Positions 390 through 12,119 of a stretch of DNA of 64,000 bases are shown here, one piece after another. Every line of letters starts with the position of its first letter. The stretch's first letter is position 1. Under the pieces are notes generated by a model. It was given only the letters and a program-made list of their open reading frames with translations, was not told where the DNA came from and ran no database searches. Source of the stretch: Eubacteriales bacterium (GTDB taxonomy: Bacteria > Bacillota > Clostridia > Christensenellales > Aristaeellaceae); assembly GCA_031556335.1 (NCBI GenBank), contig JAVBTE010000032.1:92-64091 (forward strand), in the 5' to 3' direction. A program made the position numbers and the translations under genes.

Positions 390-539
390 GGCTTTTGCGG
401 CATTTTTTTCATTTTTTCTGTGGCGAATTCCTTTGGTGCAGCCATCTTGCAGTCTGTTTCACCTGCCGTTGCGGGGCATGCGTTTCCGTGGTATAATCGT
501 TCATACCATTTCTTGGATCTGAGAGACGGAGGAACGACC

Positions 540-2228
540 ATGAAGTTGACTTTTTTGGGTGCCGCGCATGAAGTGACGGGTAGCCGTTTTTTGCTGGAAG
601 CTTGCGGAAAGCGCGTGATGATCGACTACGGCATGGAACAGGGCGTGGATGTTTATGAAAACGCGCCCCTGCCGGTGGCGGCGGGGCAGATTGACTTCGT
701 GCTGCTGACCCACGCGCATATCGATCATAGCGGGTATTTGCCGCTGCTGTATAAACAGGGCTTTCAGGGGCAGGTGTTTGCCACCGAGGCTACGATGGAT
801 TTGTGCAAGATCATGCTGCTGGACTCCGCCCACATCCAGGAAATGGATGCCGAATGGAAAAACCGCAAGGCCCAGCGCAGCGGCCGCAACATGGAGGAGC
901 CGCTGTATACCCAGCAGGATGCCATGGGCGTGTGTGCGCTGTTTCAGGCATGCAAGTACAAAACCATGGTGCAGGTGTGCGAGGGCATCGAGATCCGTTT
1001 TGTGGATGTGGGGCATTTGCTGGGCTCGGCGTCCATTGAGGTGTTCGTGACCGAGAACGGCCAAAAGGAGAAGCTGGTGTTCTCCGGAGACATTGGCAAT
1101 GTGAGGCAGCCCCTGCTGAAAGACCCCGAATACATTGCGGAAGCGGACTATGTGGTGATGGAAAGCACCTATGGCGACCGCAGCCATGGCCCGGTGCCGG
1201 ATTATATCGGCAATTTGTCCCGGATTTTGCAGGCGACCTTTGACCGGGGCGGCAATGTGGTCATTCCCAGCTTTGCGGTGGGCCGCACCCAGGAGATGCT
1301 GTACTTTATCCGCCAGATCAAGCAGGAGAAGCGAATCAAGGGCCATGAGGGCTTTCCCGTTTATGTGGATAGTCCCTTGGCCATTGAGGCGACAAACGTG
1401 TTCACCGAAAACACCCTGGAATGCGCCGATGAGGACACCGTGGCGCTGATCCGCCAGGGGGTGAACCCCATCTCTTTTGAGGGCCTCAAGGTGGCGGTCA
1501 GTGCGGATGAGAGCAAGCTGATCAATGAAGACGCAACCCCCAAGGTGATCATTTCCGCCAGCGGCATGTGCGAGGCTGGGCGCATCCGGCACCATCTGAA
1601 GCATAATTTGTGGCGGCCGGAGTGTACGGTGCTGTTTGTGGGGTACCAAAGCAACGGAACCCTGGGCCGAAGCCTGGTGGACGGCGCGCAGGAGGTTAAG
1701 ATTTTTGGGGAGCCCATCGGGGTGAAGGCCTCCATTGAAAAGCTAGACAACATCAGCGGCCACGCCGATAATGCGGGTCTGATGAAGTGGGTCGGCAGCT
1801 TTGGGAACACGCCCAAGCATGTGTTTGTGGTGCATGGCGAGGACGAGGTGTGCGAGGTGTTTGCCGCTCGGGTGCGGGATGAGCTGCGTTTGGTGGTTTC
1901 CGCGCCTTATAACGGCGAGCGCTGGGATCTGACCCAGGGCGTACTGGAGCAGGAAGGCAACAAGGTGAAGCTGGAGAAACCCTCCCATGAGCTTGCGGCA
2001 ATGGACCAGGCTCCCAAGGCGGGCGTGCCCCAACCCAGAGAGGCGAAGCCGGGCAAGCCCCGGATGGAATCCGGCGCCAGCGTGGCCTATGGCCAGTTGA
2101 TGGTGGCTGCCGGACAGCTGATGTCCCTGGCCGAAGGCATGCGGGACAGGAGCCGCAAGGATCTGCAAAAGCTGACCGGGCAGATCAACGTGCTGCTGAA
2201 ACGCTTTGGCAAGCGGGGTCGGAGATAG
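540..2228 (+). CDS. MBL-fold / beta-CASP RNA-metabolising hydrolase (RNase J-like family member) with a C-terminal extension
   Basis: MKLTFLGAAHEVTGS, the HAHIDHSG metallo-beta-lactamase motif, and beta-CASP-like downstream motifs (ESTYGDR, GHAD). GGAGG lies 7 nt before the ATG at 540. The ORF-track start at 420 is a GTG with no RBS. Confidence 0.85.
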   Translation: MKLTFLGAAHEVTGSRFLLEACGKRVMIDYGMEQGVDVYENAPLPVAAGQIDFVLLTHAHIDHSGYLPLLYKQGFQGQVFATEATMDLCKIMLLDSAHIQEMDAEWKNRKAQRSGRNMEEPLYTQQDAMGVCALFQACKYKTMVQVCEGIEIRFVDVGHLLGSASIEVFVTENGQKEKLVFSGDIGNVRQPLLKDPEYIAEADYVVMESTYGDRSHGPVPDYIGNLSRILQATFDRGGNVVIPSFAVGRTQEMLYFIRQIKQEKRIKGHEGFPVYVDSPLAIEATNVFTENTLECADEDTVALIRQGVNPISFEGLKVAVSADESKLINEDATPKVIISASGMCEAGRIRHHLKHNLWRPECTVLFVGYQSNGTLGRSLVDGAQEVKIFGEPIGVKASIEKLDNISGHADNAGLMKWVGSFGNTPKHVFVVHGEDEVCEVFAARVRDELRLVVSAPYNGERWDLTQGVLEQEGNKVKLEKPSHELAAMDQAPKAGVPQPREAKPGKPRMESGASVAYGQLMVAAGQLMSLAEGMRDRSRKDLQKLTGQINVLLKRFGKRGRR

Positions 2229-2521: not shown

Positions 2522-3541
2522 CTACCGCCCCCCGTACATCCGCTCGTAATAGCCCTGATAGTCTCCGGCCAGAATCCGTTCCCACCAATCCCGGTGCTCC
2601 AAATACCAGCGGATGGTTTTCTGGATGCCGTCCTCAAAGGGGGTTTCGGGCAACCAGCCCAGCACCCGGTGGATTTTGGCGGGATCGATGGCGTAGCGCA
2701 GGTCGTGGCCGGGCCGGTCGGTTACGTAGGTGATGAGGCTTTCCGGCTTGCCTAACTCCCGAAGGATGGTTTTTACCACGGCGAGATTGCTGCGCTCGTT
2801 GTGGCCCCCCACGTTGTATATTTCCCCAGTGCGGCCTTTTCGCATCACCAGGTCGATGGCCCGGCAATGGTCCTCCACATACAGCCAGTCCCTTACGTTT
2901 TCGCCCTTGCCGTATACGGGCAGGGGCTGGTCTCCAAGGGCCCGGGTAATCATGAGGGGGATCAGCTTTTCGGGACAGTGATAGGGGCCGTAGTTGTTGC
3001 TGCACCGGGTGATGCTGACGGGCAGGCCAAAGGTGCGGGCATAGGAAAGCACCACCAGGTCGGCGGAGGCCTTGCTGGCGGAATAGGGCGAGGAAGCGTG
3101 GATGGGGGTTTCCTCAGTAAAGAACAGGTCCGGCCTGTCCAGGGGCAGATCGCCGTAGACCTCGTCAGTGGACACCTGGTGGAAGCGGACAACGCCGTGC
3201 TTGCGGCAGGCGTCCATCAGCACCTGGGTGCCCATGATGTTGGTGCGCAAAAACACCTCCGGGTCCTCAATGGAGCGGTCCACATGGCTTTCCGCCGCAA
3301 AGTTCACCACGATGTCCGGCCGCTCTTTTTGAAAAAGATCGAAGATGAAGGGCCTGTCCGCAATGTCCCCTTTCACAAACCGGAAATGGGGCGATTTCAT
3401 GGCTTCATCAAGGGTGGCCATGTTGCCCGCATAGGTAAGGGCGTCCAGCGCCAGCACCTCATCCTGCGGGTGATTCGCCAGTTGATGGTACACAAAATTG
3501 CCACCGATAAAGCCCGCGGCGCCCGTAATTAAGATTTTCAT
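2522..3541 (-). CDS. rfbB: dTDP-glucose 4,6-dehydratase
   Basis: MKILITGAAGFIGGNF Rossmann N-terminus, the YSASKASAD catalytic YxxxK region, C-terminal WWERI. The ATG at 3541 lies 10 nt after GGGAGG; a TTG at 3547 is the alternative. Confidence 0.95.
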   Translation of the reverse strand: MKILITGAAGFIGGNFVYHQLANHPQDEVLALDALTYAGNMATLDEAMKSPHFRFVKGDIADRPFIFDLFQKERPDIVVNFAAESHVDRSIEDPEVFLRTNIMGTQVLMDACRKHGVVRFHQVSTDEVYGDLPLDRPDLFFTEETPIHASSPYSASKASADLVVLSYARTFGLPVSITRCSNNYGPYHCPEKLIPLMITRALGDQPLPVYGKGENVRDWLYVEDHCRAIDLVMRKGRTGEIYNVGGHNERSNLAVVKTILRELGKPESLITYVTDRPGHDLRYAIDPAKIHRVLGWLPETPFEDGIQKTIRWYLEHRDWWERILAGDYQGYYERMYGGR

Positions 3542-3589
3542 ACGCAATTTTCCTCCCGTGCGCTTGAAGCTACAATGAGACCGGTCGTC

Positions 3590-4489
3590 TTATTCCGCGC
3601 TTTTGTCATACAAGATACGGCCCTCCGCCACCCGGCGCAGGTGTTCGCCATAGGGAGACTTGCCATAGCGGTTGGCGGAATCCAGCAGCGTCTCTTTGGA
3701 AATCCATCCTTTTTGGTAGGCGATTTCCTCCAGGGCCGCAATTTTGACGCTTTGCCGTTTCTCAATCAACTGCACAAAGTTGGCGGCGTCCACCAGGCTG
3801 TCGATGGTGCCGGTGTCCACCCAGGCAAAGCCCCGGCCCAGCACCTTGGCGCAAAGGGAACCTTCCTTAAGGTACAGGTCGTTCAGGCTGGTAATTTCCA
3901 GCTCGCCCCGATGGCTGGGCTTTACCTGCTTGGCAAAGGCCGAAGCCCGCCCGTCGTAGAAGTAAAGGCCCGTGATGCAGTAATTGCTTTTTGGGTTTTG
4001 AGGCTTTTCCTCCACGGAGAGCACCTTGCCACGGGAATCGAATTCCACAATGCCAAAGCGCTCCGGGTCGTTGACATAATAGCCGAAGATGGTGGCCTTG
4101 CCCTGCTCGGCGTTTTGCACCGCATCGGCCAGCATGGCGGAAAAGCCGTTGCCGTAAAAGATGTTGTCCCCCAATACCATGGCGCAGGGTTCACCGCCGA
4201 TGAATTCCTCGCCGATGAGGAACGCCTGGGCCAGCCCGTCGGGGGAGGGCTGCACCGCGTAGGAAAGGGAGAGGCCAAACTGGTTGCCGTCTCCCAGCAG
4301 ATCGCGAAAACGGGGCGTGTCCGTAGGCGTGGAAATGATGAGGATATCGCGGATGCCCGCCAGCATCAGGGTGGACAGGGGATAGTAGATCATGGGCTTG
4401 TCGTAGATCGGCAGCAGTTGCTTGCTGGTTACCATGGTCAGCGGATACAGCCGGGTGCCCGCGCCCCCCGCAAGGATGATTCCTTTCAT
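3590..4489 (-). CDS. rfbA: glucose-1-phosphate thymidylyltransferase
   Basis: [18 protein letters not shown]...[18 protein letters not shown] is diagnostic. The start ATG shares 1 nt with the upstream TGA. The 430-aa track ORF is an N-terminal over-extension. Confidence 0.95.
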
Positions 4490-5505
4490 CAAAAAGCCGC
4501 CTTTCTTGGTTGCACGCCCACACCCCCGGCGGGGGAGGGGGAAGATTCCACTGGAACGCCGCGGTCGGTCGGGCCAAAGTTGATGCGCTCCTGCTCCACC
4601 ACCAAAGGCCGCTTCATCAGGCGCGTGTTCATGGACATGATGTACTCGCCCATCAGGCCGATAAAAAAGAGCTGAACGCTGCCAAGCAAAAATACGCCGA
4701 TGACCGTGGGCGCCTGGCCGGCCACGAACCGGTCCCAGTAGATCAGCTTCATCACAAGATAGACCAGGGCGATGAGAAAGCCGATCAGGCTGAAAATAGC
4801 CCCGACAAACACAGCCAGCCGCAGACCGATTTTGGTGTAGGACGTGAAGGAGAGCATGGCCGCGTCGTAGAGGGAATACCAATTGTTGTGGCTTTTGCCC
4901 GCCCGCCGCCGGGCCTGTTCGTAGGGAATCTCCTTGCGGGGGCCGCCCAGTTCCGCCACGATGCCGCGAATAAAGGGCGTTGGATCATCAAGGTCGCGAA
5001 GCACCTGGATAAAGCTTTTGTCATACAGGCCAAAGCCGGTAAAGTGCTCAATCTGCTCGCAGGAGGACATGCGCTTGATCAGCTTGTAGTAGAAAGAACG
5101 CACGTGATAGACCAGCTTGTTTTCCTTGCTGGTTTTTTTCACGCCGCATACGATTTGATAGCCTTCCTCCCACGCCGCCACAAACTGGGGGATCATCTCC
5201 ACCGGGTCCTGGAAATCGGCGCAGATGCTGATCACCGCGTCCCCCTGGGTTTGGAGCAGGGCATAGTAGGGGGAGTTGAACTGCCCGAAGTTTTTGACAT
5301 TGAAGATGGCCTTGATCTTTGGGTTCGCGGCGCAGGCCTCCCGGATGCGTTCCCGGGTGCGGTCCTTGCTGCGGTTGTCGATGAAAATGATTTCATAATC
5401 ATAGGCGGGCAGTTTCTCCATTTCCGCCACCACGGCGGCGGAAATGGGCAGCACGTTGTCCTCTTCGTTGTAGCAGGGAATCATGACGGAAAGCAGCTTC
5501 TTCAT
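4489..5505 (-). CDS. family-2 glycosyltransferase with two C-terminal TM helices (GtrB / polyprenyl-phosphate glycosyltransferase type)
   Basis: [17 protein letters not shown]...[13 protein letters not shown]2 core, plus C-terminal hydrophobic segments ([46 protein letters not shown]). AAAGGAG lies 5 nt upstream. ATGA overlap with the preceding gene. Confidence 0.85.
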
Positions 5506-6428
5506 AGGTTCTCCTTTATCCACGCGATGGTTTTGCGAATGCCGTCCACATAGGCCACCTGGGGTTCAAAGCCTGTATCCGCCCGCAGCTTTTCGATGTT
5601 CGCCTCCAGGCGCATGATTTGCCCCGGAGGATAGGGGAGGTCGCCCAGGCCGACCCTTGCGGCGGGGTCCGTTTCCCGGCACAGGATGGACAGGGCATCC
5701 GACAAAAGGATGGGCTGGCCGCTGCCCAGCACATAGGTTTCGCCGTCTTTGCCCCTTTCGCCCAACAGCCGAAAGGCCCGGGCCGCGTCCGTGGCATAGA
5801 GGAAATCCCATACTTGCTCGCCTTTGGTAAAGTGGACGGGCTCGCCCCGCAGAAGCTTCAAAATGGTGGAGGGAATGAGGGTTTCCGGCTTGACCAGGGG
5901 TCCGTACACGCTGAGGATTCTGGCCCACACGAAGGAAATGCCCAGGGTATGCGCATGAAGCCTTCCCAACCGCCCCGCCGACAGCTTGGCAATGCCGTAG
6001 CCGCTGGTGGGGAAGGCGGGGGTATCCGGGGCCAGGGGAAGCGACGTTTGCGGCATGCCGTATTCCGCCTGGGAACCCGCGCCCACAAACCGGCTGCAAC
6101 CCAGCCGCTTGGCCAGGGAAACGGCCTCCAGCGTATGGCGGATATTCCCCTCCTGCAAAAAGGCGTCGTCCCGGTGGGGGCCGAAGGTGCCGGCCCAGGC
6201 AAAATGGTACAGGATCTCATAGGGAGCATCCCCCGGCACGCCCGAGAACTGGTGAAGGTCCTCCAGATCGCATTCCACAACGCGCACCCGGGGATGGCGG
6301 GGCACATACCGGGCTCCTTCCGGGCCTTTGCGCACCAGGGCCAGCACCTCCGCACCCTGGCCCAGCAATTCCCGGGTCAAGGCCACGCCCAGCATGCCGT
6401 TGGCCCCGGTGATCACGGCCCGGGTCAT
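5502..6428 (-). CDS. NAD-dependent epimerase/dehydratase (SDR) family protein, candidate nucleotide-sugar ketoreductase
   Basis: MTRAVITGANGMLGVAL Rossmann motif and a YGIAK catalytic YxxxK. ATGA overlaps at both ends. Confidence 0.85.
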   Translation of the reverse strand: MTRAVITGANGMLGVALTRELLGQGAEVLALVRKGPEGARYVPRHPRVRVVECDLEDLHQFSGVPGDAPYEILYHFAWAGTFGPHRDDAFLQEGNIRHTLEAVSLAKRLGCSRFVGAGSQAEYGMPQTSLPLAPDTPAFPTSGYGIAKLSAGRLGRLHAHTLGISFVWARILSVYGPLVKPETLIPSTILKLLRGEPVHFTKGEQVWDFLYATDAARAFRLLGERGKDGETYVLGSGQPILLSDALSILCRETDPAARVGLGDLPYPPGQIMRLEANIEKLRADTGFEPQVAYVDGIRKTIAWIKENL

Positions 6429-8251
6429 GGCTTTTTGATAGGGGCGATCAGCATGTTGGCGCGCTGTTCGTCCTCCGGCAGGAAGGGATACAAATCCTCC
6501 AGGGGCGGGGAGACCATGGTGCCGTCCGGCAGGCGCTTGGCCGCGCTGCGGGGCTCAAACACCTGGGCCTTGGTCACCAGCACCTCGCACACAACGGGCC
6601 CTTCCTGGGCCAGCGCCTGGGGCAGCACGGAGGCGAGATCGTCGTTGTTTCGGATGGCAAAGTAGGGATAGCCATAGGCCCAGGCCAGCTTTTCCAGGGA
6701 GGGGAAGCTGAGGTCGAAGCTATCCAGGCCAATGCCCACCAAGGGAGGCGGAAAAAAGTTGTTTTGGGTCTGCCGAATGCTGTGGTAGCCTTCGTTGTTG
6801 ATGATAAACAGCCGGATGGGTAGGCGATGGTGGATGATGGTTTGAAGCTCCTGCAGGTTCATTTGCAGGCTGCCGTCCCCGGAAACGCACACGATGGGGG
6901 CCTTGCCGCCGGCGACGCACGCGCCGATGGCGGCGGGAAGGTCGTAGCCCATGGAGGCCACGGCGGACTTGATCAAAAACCGCTGGCCCTTTTTCATAAC
7001 ATAGCCATGACTGCCCACCACGCAGGCGGAACCGTTGCCCACCACGGTGACCTGGCCTTCGGGCAGGCGGGAACTGAGCTCGTGAATGAAGGCGTAGACG
7101 TTGGTCTGCTCGCAGGGCGCATAGTGCCGGGGCAGAACCACCGGGTATTTTTCTTTCCAGCTTTGGCACTGGGAAAGCCAGTCTTTCCCATGGAACAGAG
7201 GCTCTTCCGGCAGGGCTGCGGCCAGCTTTTGAAGGAAGTCCGCCGCGTCCCCGCACAGGGGCAGGTCAATGTGCAGCGTGGGCTTTTTCAGCTCCTCGGG
7301 GTCGATATCCACCGCGATGACAAAGGCCTCCCGGGCCCAGGTTTGGTAGTTGTAGCCCACCTGGCGGATGCTGAGCCGGTTGCCTACGGCCAGCACTAGG
7401 TCGCTGTTTTGCACGGCGTAGTTGCCCGCCCGGTCGCCCATGATGCCGCCCCGGCCCGCGTAAAGGGGGTCGTCGGTGGTCATCAGGTCGATGCTGTTCC
7501 AGCCGGTCACCACGGGGATGTTCAGCTTTCGCACCACGGCCTGGAAGGCGTCAAAAGCCCCTGCCGTGCGAACGCCGCTGCCGGGATACAGCACAGGCCG
7601 CTTGGCCGCGGAAATCCGGCGGATCACTTCCTGGATGGCATCCTCCGGCACCGGAGCGGGAACGGCGTCCGGGCACTCGGCGGGGTCAAAGCCCACCAGG
7701 GTGTCCGTATCCACCACGGCGGCCTGCACGTTCAGGGGAATGTCCAGCCAGGAGGGGCCGGGGCGGCCACGGGTGGCCAGGTACAGCGCCTTTTCCAGGC
7801 AATAGCGGATTCTCTCCGGCTGAATGACCATTTCGCTGAACTTGCACATGCAGCCCACAGCCTTCACGATGTCAAACTCCTGGTCGCCCATGGCCCGAAG
7901 GTGGAGGCCGGTACTGCGGGCCGTGGTGTCGAACCGCACCTGACCGGAAATGACCAGCATGGGAATGCTGTCCAGCCAGCCGCCCAGAACCCCGGTGATG
8001 GCGTTGGTTCCGCCGGGGCCGGTGGTGACGCAAACGGCGGCGATTTGGTTGTTCAGCCGGGCATAGGCCTCCGCCGCGATGGCGCAGGCCTGCTCGTGGT
8101 GGTTGTACACGCACCGCAGGCCCGGATGGTGCCCCAGGCCGTCGTTCAAGTGCATGGCGCCCCCGCCTGTGACGGAGAACACCTGGGTGATGCCGTTGTC
8201 CGCCAAAAAATCGGCGATATAGTCCGCAACTCTCCGTTTGATAGCAATCAT
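6425..8251 (-). CDS. thiamine-diphosphate-binding enzyme, acetolactate-synthase-like (YerE-like candidate)
   Basis: MIAIKRRVADYIADFLADNGITQVFSVTGGGAMHLND...TTGPGGTNAITG, with a C-terminal GDGSLQMNLQEL ThDP motif. The 776-aa track ORF over-extends into the GtrA gene in another frame. Confidence 0.85.
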   Translation of the reverse strand: MIAIKRRVADYIADFLADNGITQVFSVTGGGAMHLNDGLGHHPGLRCVYNHHEQACAIAAEAYARLNNQIAAVCVTTGPGGTNAITGVLGGWLDSIPMLVISGQVRFDTTARSTGLHLRAMGDQEFDIVKAVGCMCKFSEMVIQPERIRYCLEKALYLATRGRPGPSWLDIPLNVQAAVVDTDTLVGFDPAECPDAVPAPVPEDAIQEVIRRISAAKRPVLYPGSGVRTAGAFDAFQAVVRKLNIPVVTGWNSIDLMTTDDPLYAGRGGIMGDRAGNYAVQNSDLVLAVGNRLSIRQVGYNYQTWAREAFVIAVDIDPEELKKPTLHIDLPLCGDAADFLQKLAAALPEEPLFHGKDWLSQCQSWKEKYPVVLPRHYAPCEQTNVYAFIHELSSRLPEGQVTVVGNGSACVVGSHGYVMKKGQRFLIKSAVASMGYDLPAAIGACVAGGKAPIVCVSGDGSLQMNLQELQTIIHHRLPIRLFIINNEGYHSIRQTQNNFFPPPLVGIGLDSFDLSFPSLEKLAWAYGYPYFAIRNNDDLASVLPQALAQEGPVVCEVLVTKAQVFEPRSAAKRLPDGTMVSPPLEDLYPFLPEDEQRANMLIAPIKKP

Positions 8252-8268
8252 CCTTTCTTGTCGACGAC

Positions 8269-8745
8269 TTATGGTTGGGGAGTTCCGGCGTTTTCGCCGC
8301 CTTTCTTCCCAAAAGCCCAAAACTTGTTGAGCACATAATTCAGGGGAATGGTGATGAGCAGGTTGATGACCGGGGCCAGGCTTTGGGACACGCCCAGCGC
8401 TTCCACCCACAGGGTGAGCAGGGCGGTGCCCAGCAAAAACGTGCTGCCGTAGGAAAGAAAGGCCTTGCCGTAGGCCGCCAGATGCCGGGCAAAGGAGAGG
8501 GCCCCCTGGCTTTTGAACACATAGCGGCTGTTCCAGTAGTAGGCGTTGGTCACGCTGACCACAAAGGCCAGCACGTTGGCCAGCTGATAGTGCAGATGAA
8601 GGCCGTGGAGGCACAGCTGGTATACCAAAAGGGAGATGAGCGTGTTGGAAACGCCCACGATGCCGAATTTCACAAACTGCACCAGAGAACCATACTTCGG
8701 ATTTTCCTCCAGGGCCCGAAGCCAGGCTTTGAAGCGTTTGATCAT
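8269..8745 (-). CDS. GtrA family membrane protein (putative polyprenol-linked sugar flippase)
   Basis: 158 aa with four hydrophobic segments; LVQFVKFGIVGVSNTLISLLVY and NYVLNKFWAF are typical GtrA signatures. Confidence 0.85.
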   Translation of the reverse strand: MIKRFKAWLRALEENPKYGSLVQFVKFGIVGVSNTLISLLVYQLCLHGLHLHYQLANVLAFVVSVTNAYYWNSRYVFKSQGALSFARHLAAYGKAFLSYGSTFLLGTALLTLWVEALGVSQSLAPVINLLITIPLNYVLNKFWAFGKKGGENAGTPQP

Positions 8746-10094
8746 GCCTGCCCAACCGCTTCCCGAATGACCTGTGCCATGTAATCCAGCTTGTCCTCCG
8801 TCAGGCCGGGATACACGCCCACCCAGAAGGTGTCCCGCATGATGCGGTCGGTCTCGGTCAGCTCGCCCGCCACCCGGAACCCCTGGCCGCTTTTGCGCAG
8901 CTCGTCAAAGCAGGGGTGCTTCAAAAGGTTGCCCGCAAAGAGCATCCGGGTTTGCACGCCGCTTTTTTCAATGTGGGAAACCACCTTGCGGCGGTCGACG
9001 CCTTCCCGGCAGGTGAGGAGATAGCCAAACCAGCTGGGCCGGGAATGGGGCGCGGCTTCCGGCAGGATGAGCCGGTCTGAAAGGGGCTGGAAGGCTTCGT
9101 TCAGGCGGGCAAAATTGGCCCGGCGGCGCTCCACAAAGCCGGGGAATTTTTCCAGCTGGGCGCAGCCCACGGCGGCTTGCAGATCGGTGGCCTTCAGGTT
9201 ATAGCCGAAATGGGAGTAGACGTATTTGTGGTCGTAACCGGCGGGAAGCTCGCCGTATTGCCGGTCGAACCGGTGGCCACACAGGTTGTCCACCCCGGAG
9301 GGGCACATGCAGTCCCGGCCCCAGTCCCGGAAGGAGCGGCAAATTTTGTGCAGCAGTGGGTTTTGGGTATACACCGCGCCGCCTTCGCCCATGGTCATGT
9401 GGTGAGGCGGGTAAAAGCTGCTGGTGCCCAGGTCCCCCACGGTGCCGGTGAAGCGCTCAGTGCCGTCCAGGGTGTAGCGGGAGCCCAGGGCGTCGCAGTT
9501 GTCCTCAATCAGCCAAAGCCCATGCTGGTCGCAGAAAGCCTTGACAGCGGCCAGGTCGAAGGGGTTGCCCAAGGTGTGGGCTACCATGACGGCCTTGGTT
9601 TTGGGGGAGAGGGCCAGGGCAAGCCTGGAAACGTCGATATTGTACTGGGGAATGGTAACGTCTACAAAAACGGGCACGGCGCCGTATTGCAGCACGGGGG
9701 TCACCGTGGTGGGGAAGCCTGCCGCCACCGTGATGACCTCGTCTCCCCGAAAAATGCGCCGGTCCCCCAAAAGCGGGGAAGTGAGGGTCATAAACGCCAG
9801 CAAATTGGCGGAGGAACCGCTGTTCACCAGGGAGCAATGCTTTACGCCCAGGTAGGCGGCCAGTTTTTCTTCAAAAAGATCGGTATACCGCCCGGAGGTC
9901 AGCCAAAATTCCAGGGAAGAATCCACCAGGTTCATCATTTCTCGGCGGTCATACACCCGGGAGGCATAGGGGATGCGCTGCCCTTCCTCAAAAGGCGTTG
10001 GCTGGTTGTGAAAGACATCGCAATATTCGCCCACCAGGGCCAAAATTTCTTCCCGGGCCTGGTTTGGGGTTTTTCCTTCAAAGTGCTTGCTCAT
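8742..10094 (-). CDS. rfbH: DegT/DnrJ/EryC1-family enzyme of the RfbH type (CDP-4-keto-6-deoxy-D-glucose 3-dehydrase, E1)
   Basis: MSKHFEGKT...YASRVYDRREMMNLVDSSLEFWLTSGRY...LVNSGSSANLLA resembles RfbH/DdhC. The ATG at 10094 forms an ATGA overlap with the rfbG stop. Confidence 0.8.
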   Translation of the reverse strand: MSKHFEGKTPNQAREEILALVGEYCDVFHNQPTPFEEGQRIPYASRVYDRREMMNLVDSSLEFWLTSGRYTDLFEEKLAAYLGVKHCSLVNSGSSANLLAFMTLTSPLLGDRRIFRGDEVITVAAGFPTTVTPVLQYGAVPVFVDVTIPQYNIDVSRLALALSPKTKAVMVAHTLGNPFDLAAVKAFCDQHGLWLIEDNCDALGSRYTLDGTERFTGTVGDLGTSSFYPPHHMTMGEGGAVYTQNPLLHKICRSFRDWGRDCMCPSGVDNLCGHRFDRQYGELPAGYDHKYVYSHFGYNLKATDLQAAVGCAQLEKFPGFVERRRANFARLNEAFQPLSDRLILPEAAPHSRPSWFGYLLTCREGVDRRKVVSHIEKSGVQTRMLFAGNLLKHPCFDELRKSGQGFRVAGELTETDRIMRDTFWVGVYPGLTEDKLDYMAQVIREAVGQA

Positions 10095-11158
10095 TTTGCC
10101 TCCGCTTCGCTCGCTTTCATGTATTCCTCCATTTGCCGGAGAGTAACGCTTTGCAGGGGTTCCCCAGCCTTGAAGGCCTTGGTCCATTCCACGGTTTTTT
10201 GAACAGCCTCCTCCACGTGCCAGGTGGGCTGCCAGTGGAGGGCTGCTTTCAGCTTGGAACAGTCCAGCTTCAAAAAGTTCGCCTCATGGGGGGCGTTTGC
10301 CTCCGCCAGGTTTTGCCAGGAAGCGCCCTGCCCCCAGCAGCGCACAAACAAATCCACCAGACGGCCCGTGGAGACGCAGTCGCCGTCGTCCGGGCCCACG
10401 TTATAGCTGTCCGCCAGGGCGGGGTCATCCCACTGGCGTTCCAAAATGCGCAGATAAGCGCTGAGGGGCTCCAGCACATGCTGGTAGGGCCGGGTGCTGT
10501 ACGGGTTGCGCACCTGAATGGGCGCGCCGGATAGCGCGGCCCGCACACAGTCGGGAATGATGCGGTCCGTGGCAAAGTCCCCGCCGCCGATGACATTGCC
10601 GGCCCTGGCCGTGGAAATGGCCACCCGTCCATCCGCGAAAAAAGACCGCTGATAGCTGTGGGTCACCAGCTCGGAGCAGCTTTTGCTGTTGCTGTACGGG
10701 TCAAACCCATCCAAAAAATCGGTTTCCCGGTAGCCCCAGGTCCACTCGTTGTTGCGGTATACCTTGTCCGTTGTCACGTTGAGAAGGCCCCGGACCGTGT
10801 CCGTATGCCGGGCGGCTTCCAGCACGTTGACCGTGCCCATCACGTTGGTTTCATAGGTATAGACGGGGTCTTTGTAGCTGTCCCGCACCAGGGGCTGGGC
10901 CGCCATGTGGAGGACGACGTCCGGCCTGGCCCCGGCCATGGCGGTTTGAAGCCCGGCAAGGTCCCGCACGTCCCCCGTGAGGGAGCGCATGCTGCCCGCA
11001 AGCCCCAAAAGCTCAAAAAGGCTTGGGTCTGTGGGGGCCTCCAGGGCGTAGCCGGTAACCTCCGCCCCCAGCCGCAAAAGCATCAGCGAAAGCCAGCTGC
11101 CCTTAAACCCCGTATGCCCGGTGAGAAAAACCCGTTTGCCCCGCCAAAATTCCGCCAT
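10091..11158 (-). CDS. rfbG: CDP-glucose 4,6-dehydratase
   Basis: MAEFWRGKRVFLTGHTGFKGSWLSLML...YSNSKSCSE. The start at 11158 shares 1 nt with the rfbF stop. Confidence 0.9.
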   Translation of the reverse strand: MAEFWRGKRVFLTGHTGFKGSWLSLMLLRLGAEVTGYALEAPTDPSLFELLGLAGSMRSLTGDVRDLAGLQTAMAGARPDVVLHMAAQPLVRDSYKDPVYTYETNVMGTVNVLEAARHTDTVRGLLNVTTDKVYRNNEWTWGYRETDFLDGFDPYSNSKSCSELVTHSYQRSFFADGRVAISTARAGNVIGGGDFATDRIIPDCVRAALSGAPIQVRNPYSTRPYQHVLEPLSAYLRILERQWDDPALADSYNVGPDDGDCVSTGRLVDLFVRCWGQGASWQNLAEANAPHEANFLKLDCSKLKAALHWQPTWHVEEAVQKTVEWTKAFKAGEPLQSVTLRQMEEYMKASEAEAK

Positions 11159-11931
11159 TACCAAACCCTCCAGGGGGCTTTGTTCTCGGCCCACATTTCT
11201 TCCAGCTTTTGCAAATCCCGCTGGGTATCCATGCATTGCCAAAAGCCCGTATGCCGGTAGGCCATCAGCTGGCCGTCCGCCGCCAGGCGCTCCAGGGGTT
11301 CCCGTTCAAACACCGTTTCGTCATCCTCCAGATAATCAAAAATCTCCGGGCCCATCACCATGAAGCCGCCGTTGATGGCGTTGCCGTCGTCGTCGTTCTT
11401 TTCCCGAAACGCGGTGATCTGCTCGTTTTCCTGAATGTCCAAAACGCCAAAGCGCTGGCCGATGTTGATGGCGGTGAGGGTGGCGGCTTTGCCGCTTTTC
11501 TGATGGAAATCCAGCAATTTTTGAATGTTGACGTCCGCCACGCCGTCCCCATAGGTGAGGCAGAAGGTTTCGCCCTGCACATATGGCTGGATGCGTTTGA
11601 CCCGGCCGCCGGTCATGGTGGAAAGCCCGGTGTCCACCAGCGTGACCCGCCAGGGTTCGGCGAAGTTGCTGTGCACCTCCATGGCGTTGGACCGGGTAAA
11701 GTCAAAGGTGATATCGCTGCGGTGCAGGTAGTAGTCCGCAAAAAATTGCTTGATGATGTGCTGCTTATACCCGCAGCAGATGACAAAATCATGAATGCCG
11801 TAATGGGAGTAGATTTTCATGATGTGCCAGAGAATGGGCATGCCGCCCACCTCAATCATGGGCTTGGGCTTCAAATAGCTCTCCTCCGAAATGCGGGTTC
11901 CAAAGCCTCCGGCCAAAATAACAGCTTTCAT
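11158..11931 (-). CDS. rfbF: glucose-1-phosphate cytidylyltransferase
   Basis: MKAVILAGGFGTRISEESYLKPKPMIEVGGMPILWHIMKIYSHYG is diagnostic of RfbF/DdhA. AAAGGAGG lies upstream of the ATG at 11931. Confidence 0.92.
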   Translation of the reverse strand: MKAVILAGGFGTRISEESYLKPKPMIEVGGMPILWHIMKIYSHYGIHDFVICCGYKQHIIKQFFADYYLHRSDITFDFTRSNAMEVHSNFAEPWRVTLVDTGLSTMTGGRVKRIQPYVQGETFCLTYGDGVADVNIQKLLDFHQKSGKAATLTAINIGQRFGVLDIQENEQITAFREKNDDDGNAINGGFMVMGPEIFDYLEDDETVFEREPLERLAADGQLMAYRHTGFWQCMDTQRDLQKLEEMWAENKAPWRVW

Positions 11932-12075
11932 AAGGTGAGGCGGCCTCCTTTGTAGCATCAAATTCATACCTGGGGAACGAATGAAAATATTATACAGGAA
12001 ATTGCCCAAAAAGGAAAGGCGGGGAAGGAGGGGGGAACCAAATTATGAACGCTTCGTAAACAATGCCCAAAACGC

Positions 12076-12103: not shown

Positions 12104-12119
12104 GAGGGTCACGGCAAGA

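Follow-up and report, generated by a model that had tools for sequence, protein, structure and literature searches.

On the surfaces of Gram-negative bacteria and mycobacteria, branched 3,6-dideoxy sugars act as strong antigens, and to our knowledge they are not known from the Clostridia; nor do we know of lipid-carrier systems for adding sugars outside the cell that handle anything other than plain glucose (Glc), galactose (Gal) or N-acetylglucosamine (GlcNAc). The closest described pathways are those of YerE/YerF for cytidine diphosphate (CDP)-yersiniose A in Yersinia pseudotuberculosis O:VI, ErwE/ErwF/ErwI/ErwJ for erwiniose in Pectobacterium atrosepticum, and MMAR_2332 for caryophyllose in Mycobacterium marinum (PMC9306805, PMC12247030), together with JanthE of Janthinobacterium sp. 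HH01, a characterised YerE-like carboligase acting on 2-oxo acids and ketones (PMC12188165). For export, the systems to compare are GtrA/GtrB/GtrC of Shigella and Salmonella phages, CsbB/GtcA/YfhO of Bacillus and Staphylococcus, GtlA/GtcA/GtlB of Listeria, and ArnC/ArnT; the reviewed multi-component transmembrane glycosylation systems move Glc, Gal and GlcNAc from uridine diphosphate (UDP) donors (PMC8035078). Here we describe a nine-gene operon at positions 2522-11931 (minus strand) of a 64,000-nucleotide stretch, hereafter the window, from contig JAVBTE010000032.1 of the Eubacteriales assembly GCA_031556335.1. Its first seven genes, from rfbF to a family 2 glycosyltransferase (GT2) gene, probably form an accessory cassette that makes a CDP-activated, C4-acyl-branched 3,6-dideoxyhexose and hands it to a lipid carrier.

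The source genome is a 2.7-Mb assembly of 211 contigs, 81% complete and with 4% contamination, and every negative result given for it below is to be read at that completeness. Both SpoVAC and SpoVAD are present, and the source organism is therefore an endospore-forming member of the Bacillota.

Like the YerE/YerF pathways, the cassette has a front end of CDP-glucose formation, 4,6-dehydratase and E1 3-dehydrase, and then genes for a thiamine diphosphate (ThDP)-dependent carboligase of the acetohydroxyacid synthase (AHAS)-like decarboxylase superfamily and, after it, for an NAD(P)H reductase (PMC9306805, PMC12247030); the likeness to YpYerE, YerF, ErwE and ErwF is one of description and gene order, not of direct alignment. 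It differs in having no gene for the E3 reductase (DdhD/AscD), in its host, a spore-forming member of the Bacillota rather than a proteobacterium or mycobacterium, and in carrying a GtrB-type GT2 with a GtrA protein, whereas the YerE/YerF sugars go to a Leloir O-antigen transferase. With the Gtr and CsbB-YfhO systems it shares a membrane-anchored GT2 of glycosyltransferase fold A (GT-A) with two C-terminal helices and a GtrA-family protein and, in relatives of the cassette, an adjoining YfhO, GT87-like or GtrII gene. Known Gtr-type systems handle Glc, Gal, GlcNAc or 4-deoxy-4-formamido-L-arabinose (Ara4FN), and UDP-sugars (PMC8035078), whereas here the pathway is that of a CDP-based branched dideoxy sugar; unlike in those systems, the partner of glycosyltransferase fold C (GT-C) is unlinked in the source genome, and there is no YfhO. 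Both the chemistry, which follows YerE/YerF, and the export, which follows Gtr and CsbB-YfhO, are of known kinds. The literature searched contains no description of a dideoxyhexose coupled to a Gtr-type system, of the CDP donor or of the absence of E3, and we found no paper there uniting rfbH with YfhO, or a dideoxyhexose with GtrB, YfhO or CsbB; a 2024 survey that may cover part of this lay outside the search.

Gene content of the operon and the proposed pathway

The listing of open reading frames (ORFs) and the reading of starts and stops bear out the nine intact, co-directional minus-strand genes that the initial annotation had proposed (coordinates are given with the stop codon included), and the six short overlaps that it had listed are all real. 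Two of these are of 1 nucleotide (nt), between rfbF and rfbG at 11158 and between the GT2 stop and the rfbA start at 4489, and four are 4-nt ATGA overlaps (10091-10094, 8742-8745, 6425-6428 and 5502-5505); the remaining two junctions are gaps, of 17 nt between gtrA and the ThDP gene and of 42 nt between rfbA and rfbB. Curated NCBIfam equivalog cut-offs are passed by RfbF, RfbG, RfbH, RfbA and RfbB, and GtrA passes its Pfam cut-off.

The first three genes would provide the deoxygenated nucleotide sugar. By homology, the glucose-1-phosphate cytidylyltransferase RfbF (11158-11931, 257 amino acids (aa); TIGR02623, 408 bits against a cut-off of 300) would yield CDP-glucose, the CDP-glucose 4,6-dehydratase RfbG (10091-11158, 355 aa; TIGR02622, 459 bits against 278) would turn this into CDP-4-keto-6-deoxyglucose, and RfbH (8742-10094, 450 aa; NF011936, 705 bits against 423), an E1-type CDP-4-keto-6-deoxyglucose 3-dehydrase of the pyridoxamine 5'-phosphate (PMP)/[2Fe-2S] kind, would strip the C3 hydroxyl. 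The YerE-like ThDP-dependent carboligase (6425-8251, 608 aa, with three TPP_enzyme domains), which is presumed to be C4-branching, would decarboxylate a common 2-oxo acid and add the acyl anion to the C4 ketone. An extended short-chain dehydrogenase/reductase (SDR; 5502-6428, 308 aa; PF01370, 131 bits) with the motifs TGxxGxxG and YGIAK is the presumed YerF-like reductase, and would reduce the branched product, as YerF and ErwF do, to a yersiniose-like sugar. The GtrB/ArnC-type GT2 (4489-5505, 338 aa; PF00535, 81 bits), a presumed polyprenyl-phosphate glycosyltransferase, would move the sugar from CDP to undecaprenyl phosphate; the GtrA-family small membrane protein (8269-8745, 158 aa; PF04138, 89 bits against 26), a presumed flippase, would flip the lipid-linked sugar; and an unlinked GT-C enzyme would attach it to a wall polymer or surface protein.

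Distribution of the cassette

A search of one genome per species yielded 80 loci that encode a ThDP-enzyme relative, and their neighbourhoods were analysed by tblastn, ORF calling, ORF clustering and Pfam scans of the cluster representatives. The resulting counts are lower bounds, as greedy ORF picking sometimes took the wrong strand in GC-rich loci; for example, it missed the GT2 in L016, L030, L059 and L078, where tblastn detects it. The ThDP gene was counted in 76 of the 80 loci, rfbH in 63, rfbG in 58, the SDR in 55, the GT2 in 51, rfbF in 50 and GtrA in 16. ThDP and rfbH occur together with rfbG or rfbF in 55 loci, ThDP, SDR and GT2 are directly adjacent in 30, RfbF orthologues (60-71% identity) head the cassette in 50, and in 16 GtrA lies between rfbH and the ThDP gene, as it does in the window. 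Dozens of Clostridia, and members of other phyla, share the core rfbF-rfbG-rfbH-(gtrA)-ThDP-SDR-GT2; carriers among the gut Clostridia are Lachnospira, Acetatifactor, Acutalibacteraceae and Oscillospiraceae.

The window thus holds an ordinary member of a cassette family that is widespread but unstudied, and its own additions are the fusion to the core genes rfbA-rfbB, the link to a WecE-type enzyme and the lack of a linked GT-C gene. We tentatively suggest, with less confidence than for the pathway itself, that the cassette GT2 might represent the first GtrB-type subfamily acting on a CDP-activated branched 3,6-dideoxyhexose, with an E3-free E1 running on anaerobe reductants and a YfhO-attached epitope common among gut commensals. 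If so, many gut commensals would carry on their surface a branched dideoxy sugar, attached there extracellularly by means of a lipid carrier, a polyprenyl-phosphate transferase would take a CDP-sugar, and an E1 dehydrase would need no E3. Carriers of the cassette exist in culture, among them Lachnospira intestinalis CLA-AA-H89B (L014), Anthropogastromicrobium aceti H6_35 (L024) and Desulfosporosinus metallidurans OL (L073), and the sugar can be searched for directly.

A tree of ThDP enzymes, restricted to cassette homologues and AHAS-like outgroups, places the window protein as sister to that of L001, a distant Eubacteriales metagenome-assembled genome (support 98), with the protein of the congener G020 elsewhere; the row for the congener G010, an ORF read in the wrong frame whose branch length is 10, was disregarded. 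L001 has a 692-aa ORF without a Pfam match directly after the GT2 (L001:15965-18040, plus strand), which may be an unrecognised GT-C partner and has no homologue in the source genome. In this locus (L001:12555-14980) and in L017, L019, L021, L022 and L024, the SDR and the GT2 are separated by genes for a Zn-dependent dehydrogenase and a C-methyltransferase, and the L017 group continues with a LicD-family gene and one for a GT87/EpsG-like membrane protein; such loci would be for a further-modified variant of the sugar. In L049 (10001-about 12800) the called ThDP ORF has 931 aa, exceeding those of other loci by about 300 aa, and could be a fusion or an ORF-calling artefact.

Assignment of RfbH and the ThDP enzyme

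RfbH aligns with the Yersinia E1 (PDB 3BCX) at 519 bits over residues 11-446, and keeps the residues matching His220, Cys193, Cys251, Cys253 and Cys261; around the histidine, SFYPPHH stands against SFYPAHH. We take His220 of the Yersinia E1 to replace the Schiff-base lysine, and the four cysteines of the motif C-x57-C-x-C-x7-C to be the Fe-S ligands. The His-for-Lys signature, whose loss would have spoken against a dehydrase of this type, is therefore retained, and the histidine and the four cysteines are invariant in all 62 cassette RfbH homologues compared.

By sequence, the ThDP enzyme groups with the YerE-like sugar carboligases and not with AHAS. Its best PDB match is JanthE (8RPH; 445 bits, residues 5-597 against 6-597), followed by PpYerE (5AHK; 249 bits) and then the best AHAS at about 235 bits. 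The alignment with JanthE (PDB 8RPH, 8RPI, 8RPJ) runs from end to end and takes in a common C-terminal extension, ...DGT-VSPPLEDL-P..P. The two differ in the ThDP motif, which in JanthE is an unusual CDG (PMC12247030) and in the window enzyme the canonical GDG, within a GDG-x26-NN motif at residue 458.

It is extremely improbable that the protein is instead the organism's own acetolactate/acetohydroxyacid synthase, standing in a sugar operon by chance. In favour of such a role one could point out that the assembly yielded no other AHAS-family gene and has a leuA fragment on contig C119, but the protein falls below every NCBIfam AHAS cut-off (337 bits against 538 for TIGR00118), JanthE is far nearer to it than any AHAS, and its gene is tied to rfbH and the SDR in more than 50 loci. 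We could not find ilvN in the source genome, and a true AHAS large subunit, over the NCBIfam cut-off, was present in only one of 25 congeners (G001-G025). As the sole AHAS-family gene of a genome without a recognisable ilvN, in a genus mostly without AHAS, it is therefore no housekeeping enzyme; branched-chain amino acid synthesis may be largely missing from the genus.

The glycosyltransferase and the proposed lipid-carrier route

The initial assignment of the GT2 as GtrB-type stands: its PDB matches are Synechocystis GtrB (5EKE, 152 bits, residues 5-303) and ArnC (106 bits), and it has two C-terminal transmembrane helices at 230-248 and 268-286. Against NCBIfam it gives full-length matches below the cut-offs to PgfS (160 bits) and ArnC (120 bits), and so is the equivalog of neither. 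Its identity to cassette orthologues across families is 60-72%, against 27-33% to the three GtrB-like paralogs of the source genome, which fits a dedicated donor specificity. The source genome has three further GtrA-family genes.

Among the related loci, a GT-C gene adjoins the cassette in 34 of 80, being of YfhO, GT87-like or GtrII type. The 905-aa neighbour found in 24 loci is YfhO (PF09586, 326 bits), GT87-like neighbours occur in 15 and 6 loci, and a GtrII-type neighbour in two. The GT-C partner implied by the initial annotation is thus real in relatives, and its adjacency there supports the lipid-carrier route; the part of the earlier proposal that placed decoration outside the cytoplasm through GtrA and the GT2 gains from this, with no GT-C gene linked to the cassette here.

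The earlier statement that a GT-C or YfhO gene is absent holds for the window's contig, on which we found none, and does not extend to GT-C genes in the genome as a whole. At least seven GT-C-type candidates are present elsewhere: PMT_2 matches number seven, spread over four other contigs, and GT87 adds one more. A final transferase is thus possible in the source genome, but unlinked. The seven PMT_2 and the one GT87-like matches lie on contigs C116, C32, C68, C202 and C126; two of the PMT_2 matches fall in a single ORF of 1432 aa, and two tandem pairs also occur. None of these contigs carries a GtrB-like GT2; GT-A and GT-C partners appear to be generally unlinked in this genome.

Points against the proposed pathway

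Several observations weigh against the pathway set out above, at its deoxygenation, branching and export steps alike.

For deoxygenation, there is no evidence of an E3 in the source genome by Pfam NAD_binding_1, by BLAST with ferredoxin-NADP reductase (FNR)-like proteins or by the plant-type 2Fe-2S motif; its only three NAD_binding_1 proteins are PyrK/NfnA-like, with a DHODB Fe-S domain. Nor did we find FNR-like or suitably sized plant-type 2Fe-2S ORFs within 7 kb of the related cassettes. The missing DdhD partner, first noted for the operon, is thus missing from genome and cassette flanks as well, and as no related cassette has an E3 beside it, this absence is a trait of the whole cassette family rather than of the window. 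Because there is no E3 partner, the C3 deoxygenation would depend on a general reductant of the cell that supplies the E1 with electrons. A parallel may be SpnQ of spinosyn biosynthesis, an E1 homologue reportedly running on general cellular ferredoxin/flavodoxin reductases. Like RfbH, SpnQ is a 3-dehydrase of the E1 type that has Fe-S ligands and is not known to have an E3 gene dedicated to it; it differs in its substrate, a TDP-2,6-dideoxy sugar (TDP, thymidine diphosphate), and in its setting, an actinomycete secondary-metabolite cluster. By analogy with it, we infer that RfbH here uses general ferredoxin/flavodoxin or another cellular reductase.

For branching, the SDR gives no match over cut-off to any NCBIfam equivalog model, and its presumed role as reductase of the branched intermediate comes from gene position only. 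The donor 2-oxo acid, too, could be other than pyruvate. JanthE is promiscuous, accepting pyruvate, 2-oxobutyrate, 2-oxovalerate and 4-methyl-2-oxopentanoate (PMC12247030), and in the tree the window enzyme is interspersed with ThDP enzymes from 15 loci that have an HMGL-like aldolase next door, which fall among its nearest clades and include that of L002 at 67% identity. Both points speak for a branch of other than two carbons, made by the same pathway from 2-oxobutyrate, 2-oxovalerate or a hydroxylated 2-oxo acid produced elsewhere and giving an erwiniose-like or new sugar. We nevertheless hold this to be rather unlikely: the window cassette has no aldolase, dehydrogenase or other donor-making gene, and ErwE, which refuses pyruvate, has its aldolase in the cluster, as systems of its type that need long donors carry the donor genes with them (PMC9306805). 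As the cassette has no aldolase, its donor is probably one of the common 2-oxo acids, with pyruvate the simplest choice; reduction by the SDR would then likely give a yersiniose-like sugar. What endures of the yersiniose-like logic first proposed is the set of RfbF, RfbG, RfbH, YerE-like ThDP enzyme and SDR, with a branch of two carbons as the likelier reading.

The aldolase joins the ThDP gene in about 15 loci (for example L062:7911-12761, L065, L066, L068, L071 and L073), seven of which have, in addition, a gene like that for dehydroquinate synthase and one for a classical SDR; these loci point to longer or cyclised branches of the caryophyllose or erwiniose type. With aldolase, C-methyltransferase and Zn-dehydrogenase variants among its members, the family would therefore make a range of sugars.

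For export, we could not identify any YfhO in the source genome, nor any GT-C gene linked to the cassette, and the GT-C proteins adjoining the related cassettes have no homologues there. The characterised GtrB/CsbB/GtlA-type enzymes that we found use UDP-sugars, and a CDP-sugar is without precedent among them (PMC8035078). The GT2 and GtrA might accordingly be an ordinary Gtr module for a common UDP-sugar, with the CDP-branched sugar used by an unlinked cytoplasmic Leloir glycosyltransferase as in the O-antigens of Yersinia and Pectobacterium. Two congeners, G010 and G020, do carry a five-gene core rfbF-rfbG-rfbH-ThDP-SDR without GtrA or this GT2, so the sugar would be usable without the Gtr module. 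Such a division of labour is nonetheless unlikely, since there is no second glycosyltransferase in the operon and the GT2 belongs with the sugar genes by several signs: a GT2 of its cluster is present in 51 of the 76 ThDP-bearing loci and directly follows the SDR in 30, it overlaps the SDR by 4 nt in the window, and its subfamily (60-72% identical) is distinct from the other GtrB-like genes of the genome. GtrA, for its part, is wedged between rfbH and the ThDP gene. A GT2 and GtrA dedicated to the branched sugar remain the better reading of this arrangement.

Fusion of the cassette to resident rfbA-rfbB

The last two genes of the operon are rfbA (3590-4489, 299 aa), for a glucose-1-phosphate thymidylyltransferase (TIGR01207, 468 bits against 361), and rfbB (2522-3547, 341 aa), for a dTDP-glucose 4,6-dehydratase (dTDP, deoxythymidine diphosphate; TIGR01181, 479 bits against 365). 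Their distribution is quite unlike that of the cassette: rfbB, single-copy in the source genome, is present in 30 of 36 congeners at 72-84% identity, while the ThDP gene is found in two of the 36, at 60% identity, with up to 75% identity in other families. In the congener G013, rfbA (86% identical) stands without a cassette; RNase J, rfbB and rfbA have the same relative layout there, about 4.9 kb further from RNase J, and a tyrosine phosphatase gene lies upstream of rfbA. When the two are aligned, homology starts exactly at the rfbA ATG, with no insertion scar in the aligned upstream region of rfbA, and the synteny upstream of the cassette is not kept between the window and G013. With rfbB a core gene, the ThDP gene patchy and G013 without the cassette, it follows that an accessory seven-gene cassette abuts resident rfbA-rfbB.

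On alignment and distribution, the operon is thus a chimera in which the seven-gene cassette is joined onto resident rfbA-rfbB, and the single nine-gene pathway of the initial annotation is not borne out. We propose that rfbA has lost its own upstream region and that rfbA-rfbB are now co-transcribed with the cassette; an accessory sugar cassette could in this way capture the transcription of core sugar-nucleotide genes.

The cassette may also be read as a recent, incomplete acquisition, lacking a GT-C or E3 gene, with the pathway idle or the final transfer absent and the transcription of rfbA-rfbB as the only selected effect of the fusion. Its rarity among the congeners, the loss of the region upstream of rfbA, and the absence from the source genome of any homologue of YfhO, of the GT87-like proteins or of the 692-aa protein of L001 would all suit this. 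It is distinctly unlikely, however, as the seven genes are intact and translationally coupled, the genome is merely 81% complete, at least seven other GT-C-type genes could serve, and one flippase of Lactococcus serves several unlinked glycosyltransferase pairs (PMC8035078).

RfbA and RfbB would stand outside the branched-sugar chemistry. The initial annotation had seen no finishing enzymes for the dTDP-4-keto-6-deoxyglucose that they supply; for rhamnose this is upheld, and in general it is not. There is no match for rmlC (PF00908) in the source genome and none over the cut-off for RmlD, and the dTDP-L-rhamnose set of rmlC and rmlD in addition to rmlA/rmlB is not found; rmlC occurs in four of the 36 congeners. 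An RmlD-like SDR on contig C119, considered as a finisher of the dTDP stream, scores 58 bits against a cut-off of 224 and lies in an exopolysaccharide locus. A WecE-type transaminase is, however, encoded on contig C182 (C182:3062-4186, equivalently L114:3062-4186, plus strand), with 592 bits against a cut-off of 375 on the model for dTDP-4-amino-4,6-dideoxygalactose transaminase and 582 against 435 on the WecE model, and like rfbB it is found in 30 of the 36 congeners. The product of RfbB is the substrate of this class of enzyme, and the unlinked transaminase is therefore most likely the finishing enzyme, dTDP-4-keto-6-deoxyglucose feeding it and the stream ending in a dTDP-4-amino-4,6-dideoxyhexose rather than rhamnose. 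The WecE-type gene is an orphan: its neighbours are dnaK and ORFs without annotation, and none of the surrounding genes is for glycans.

Flanking genes

The operon lies between a convergent RNase J-like gene (420-2228, plus strand) and a divergent TetR/ABC exporter unit that begins at 12119 (plus strand). Upstream of rfbF, a consensus scan gave a weak candidate for a sigma-70-like promoter, TGGGCA-16-CATAAT (12042-12069, minus strand; 9 of 12 positions), which stands back-to-back with a candidate tetR promoter. The orthologue of the RNase J-like gene has one or two in-frame stops (TGA, TAG, TAA) in five congeners (G004, G008, G015, G016 and G018), which may be assembly errors or pseudogenes.

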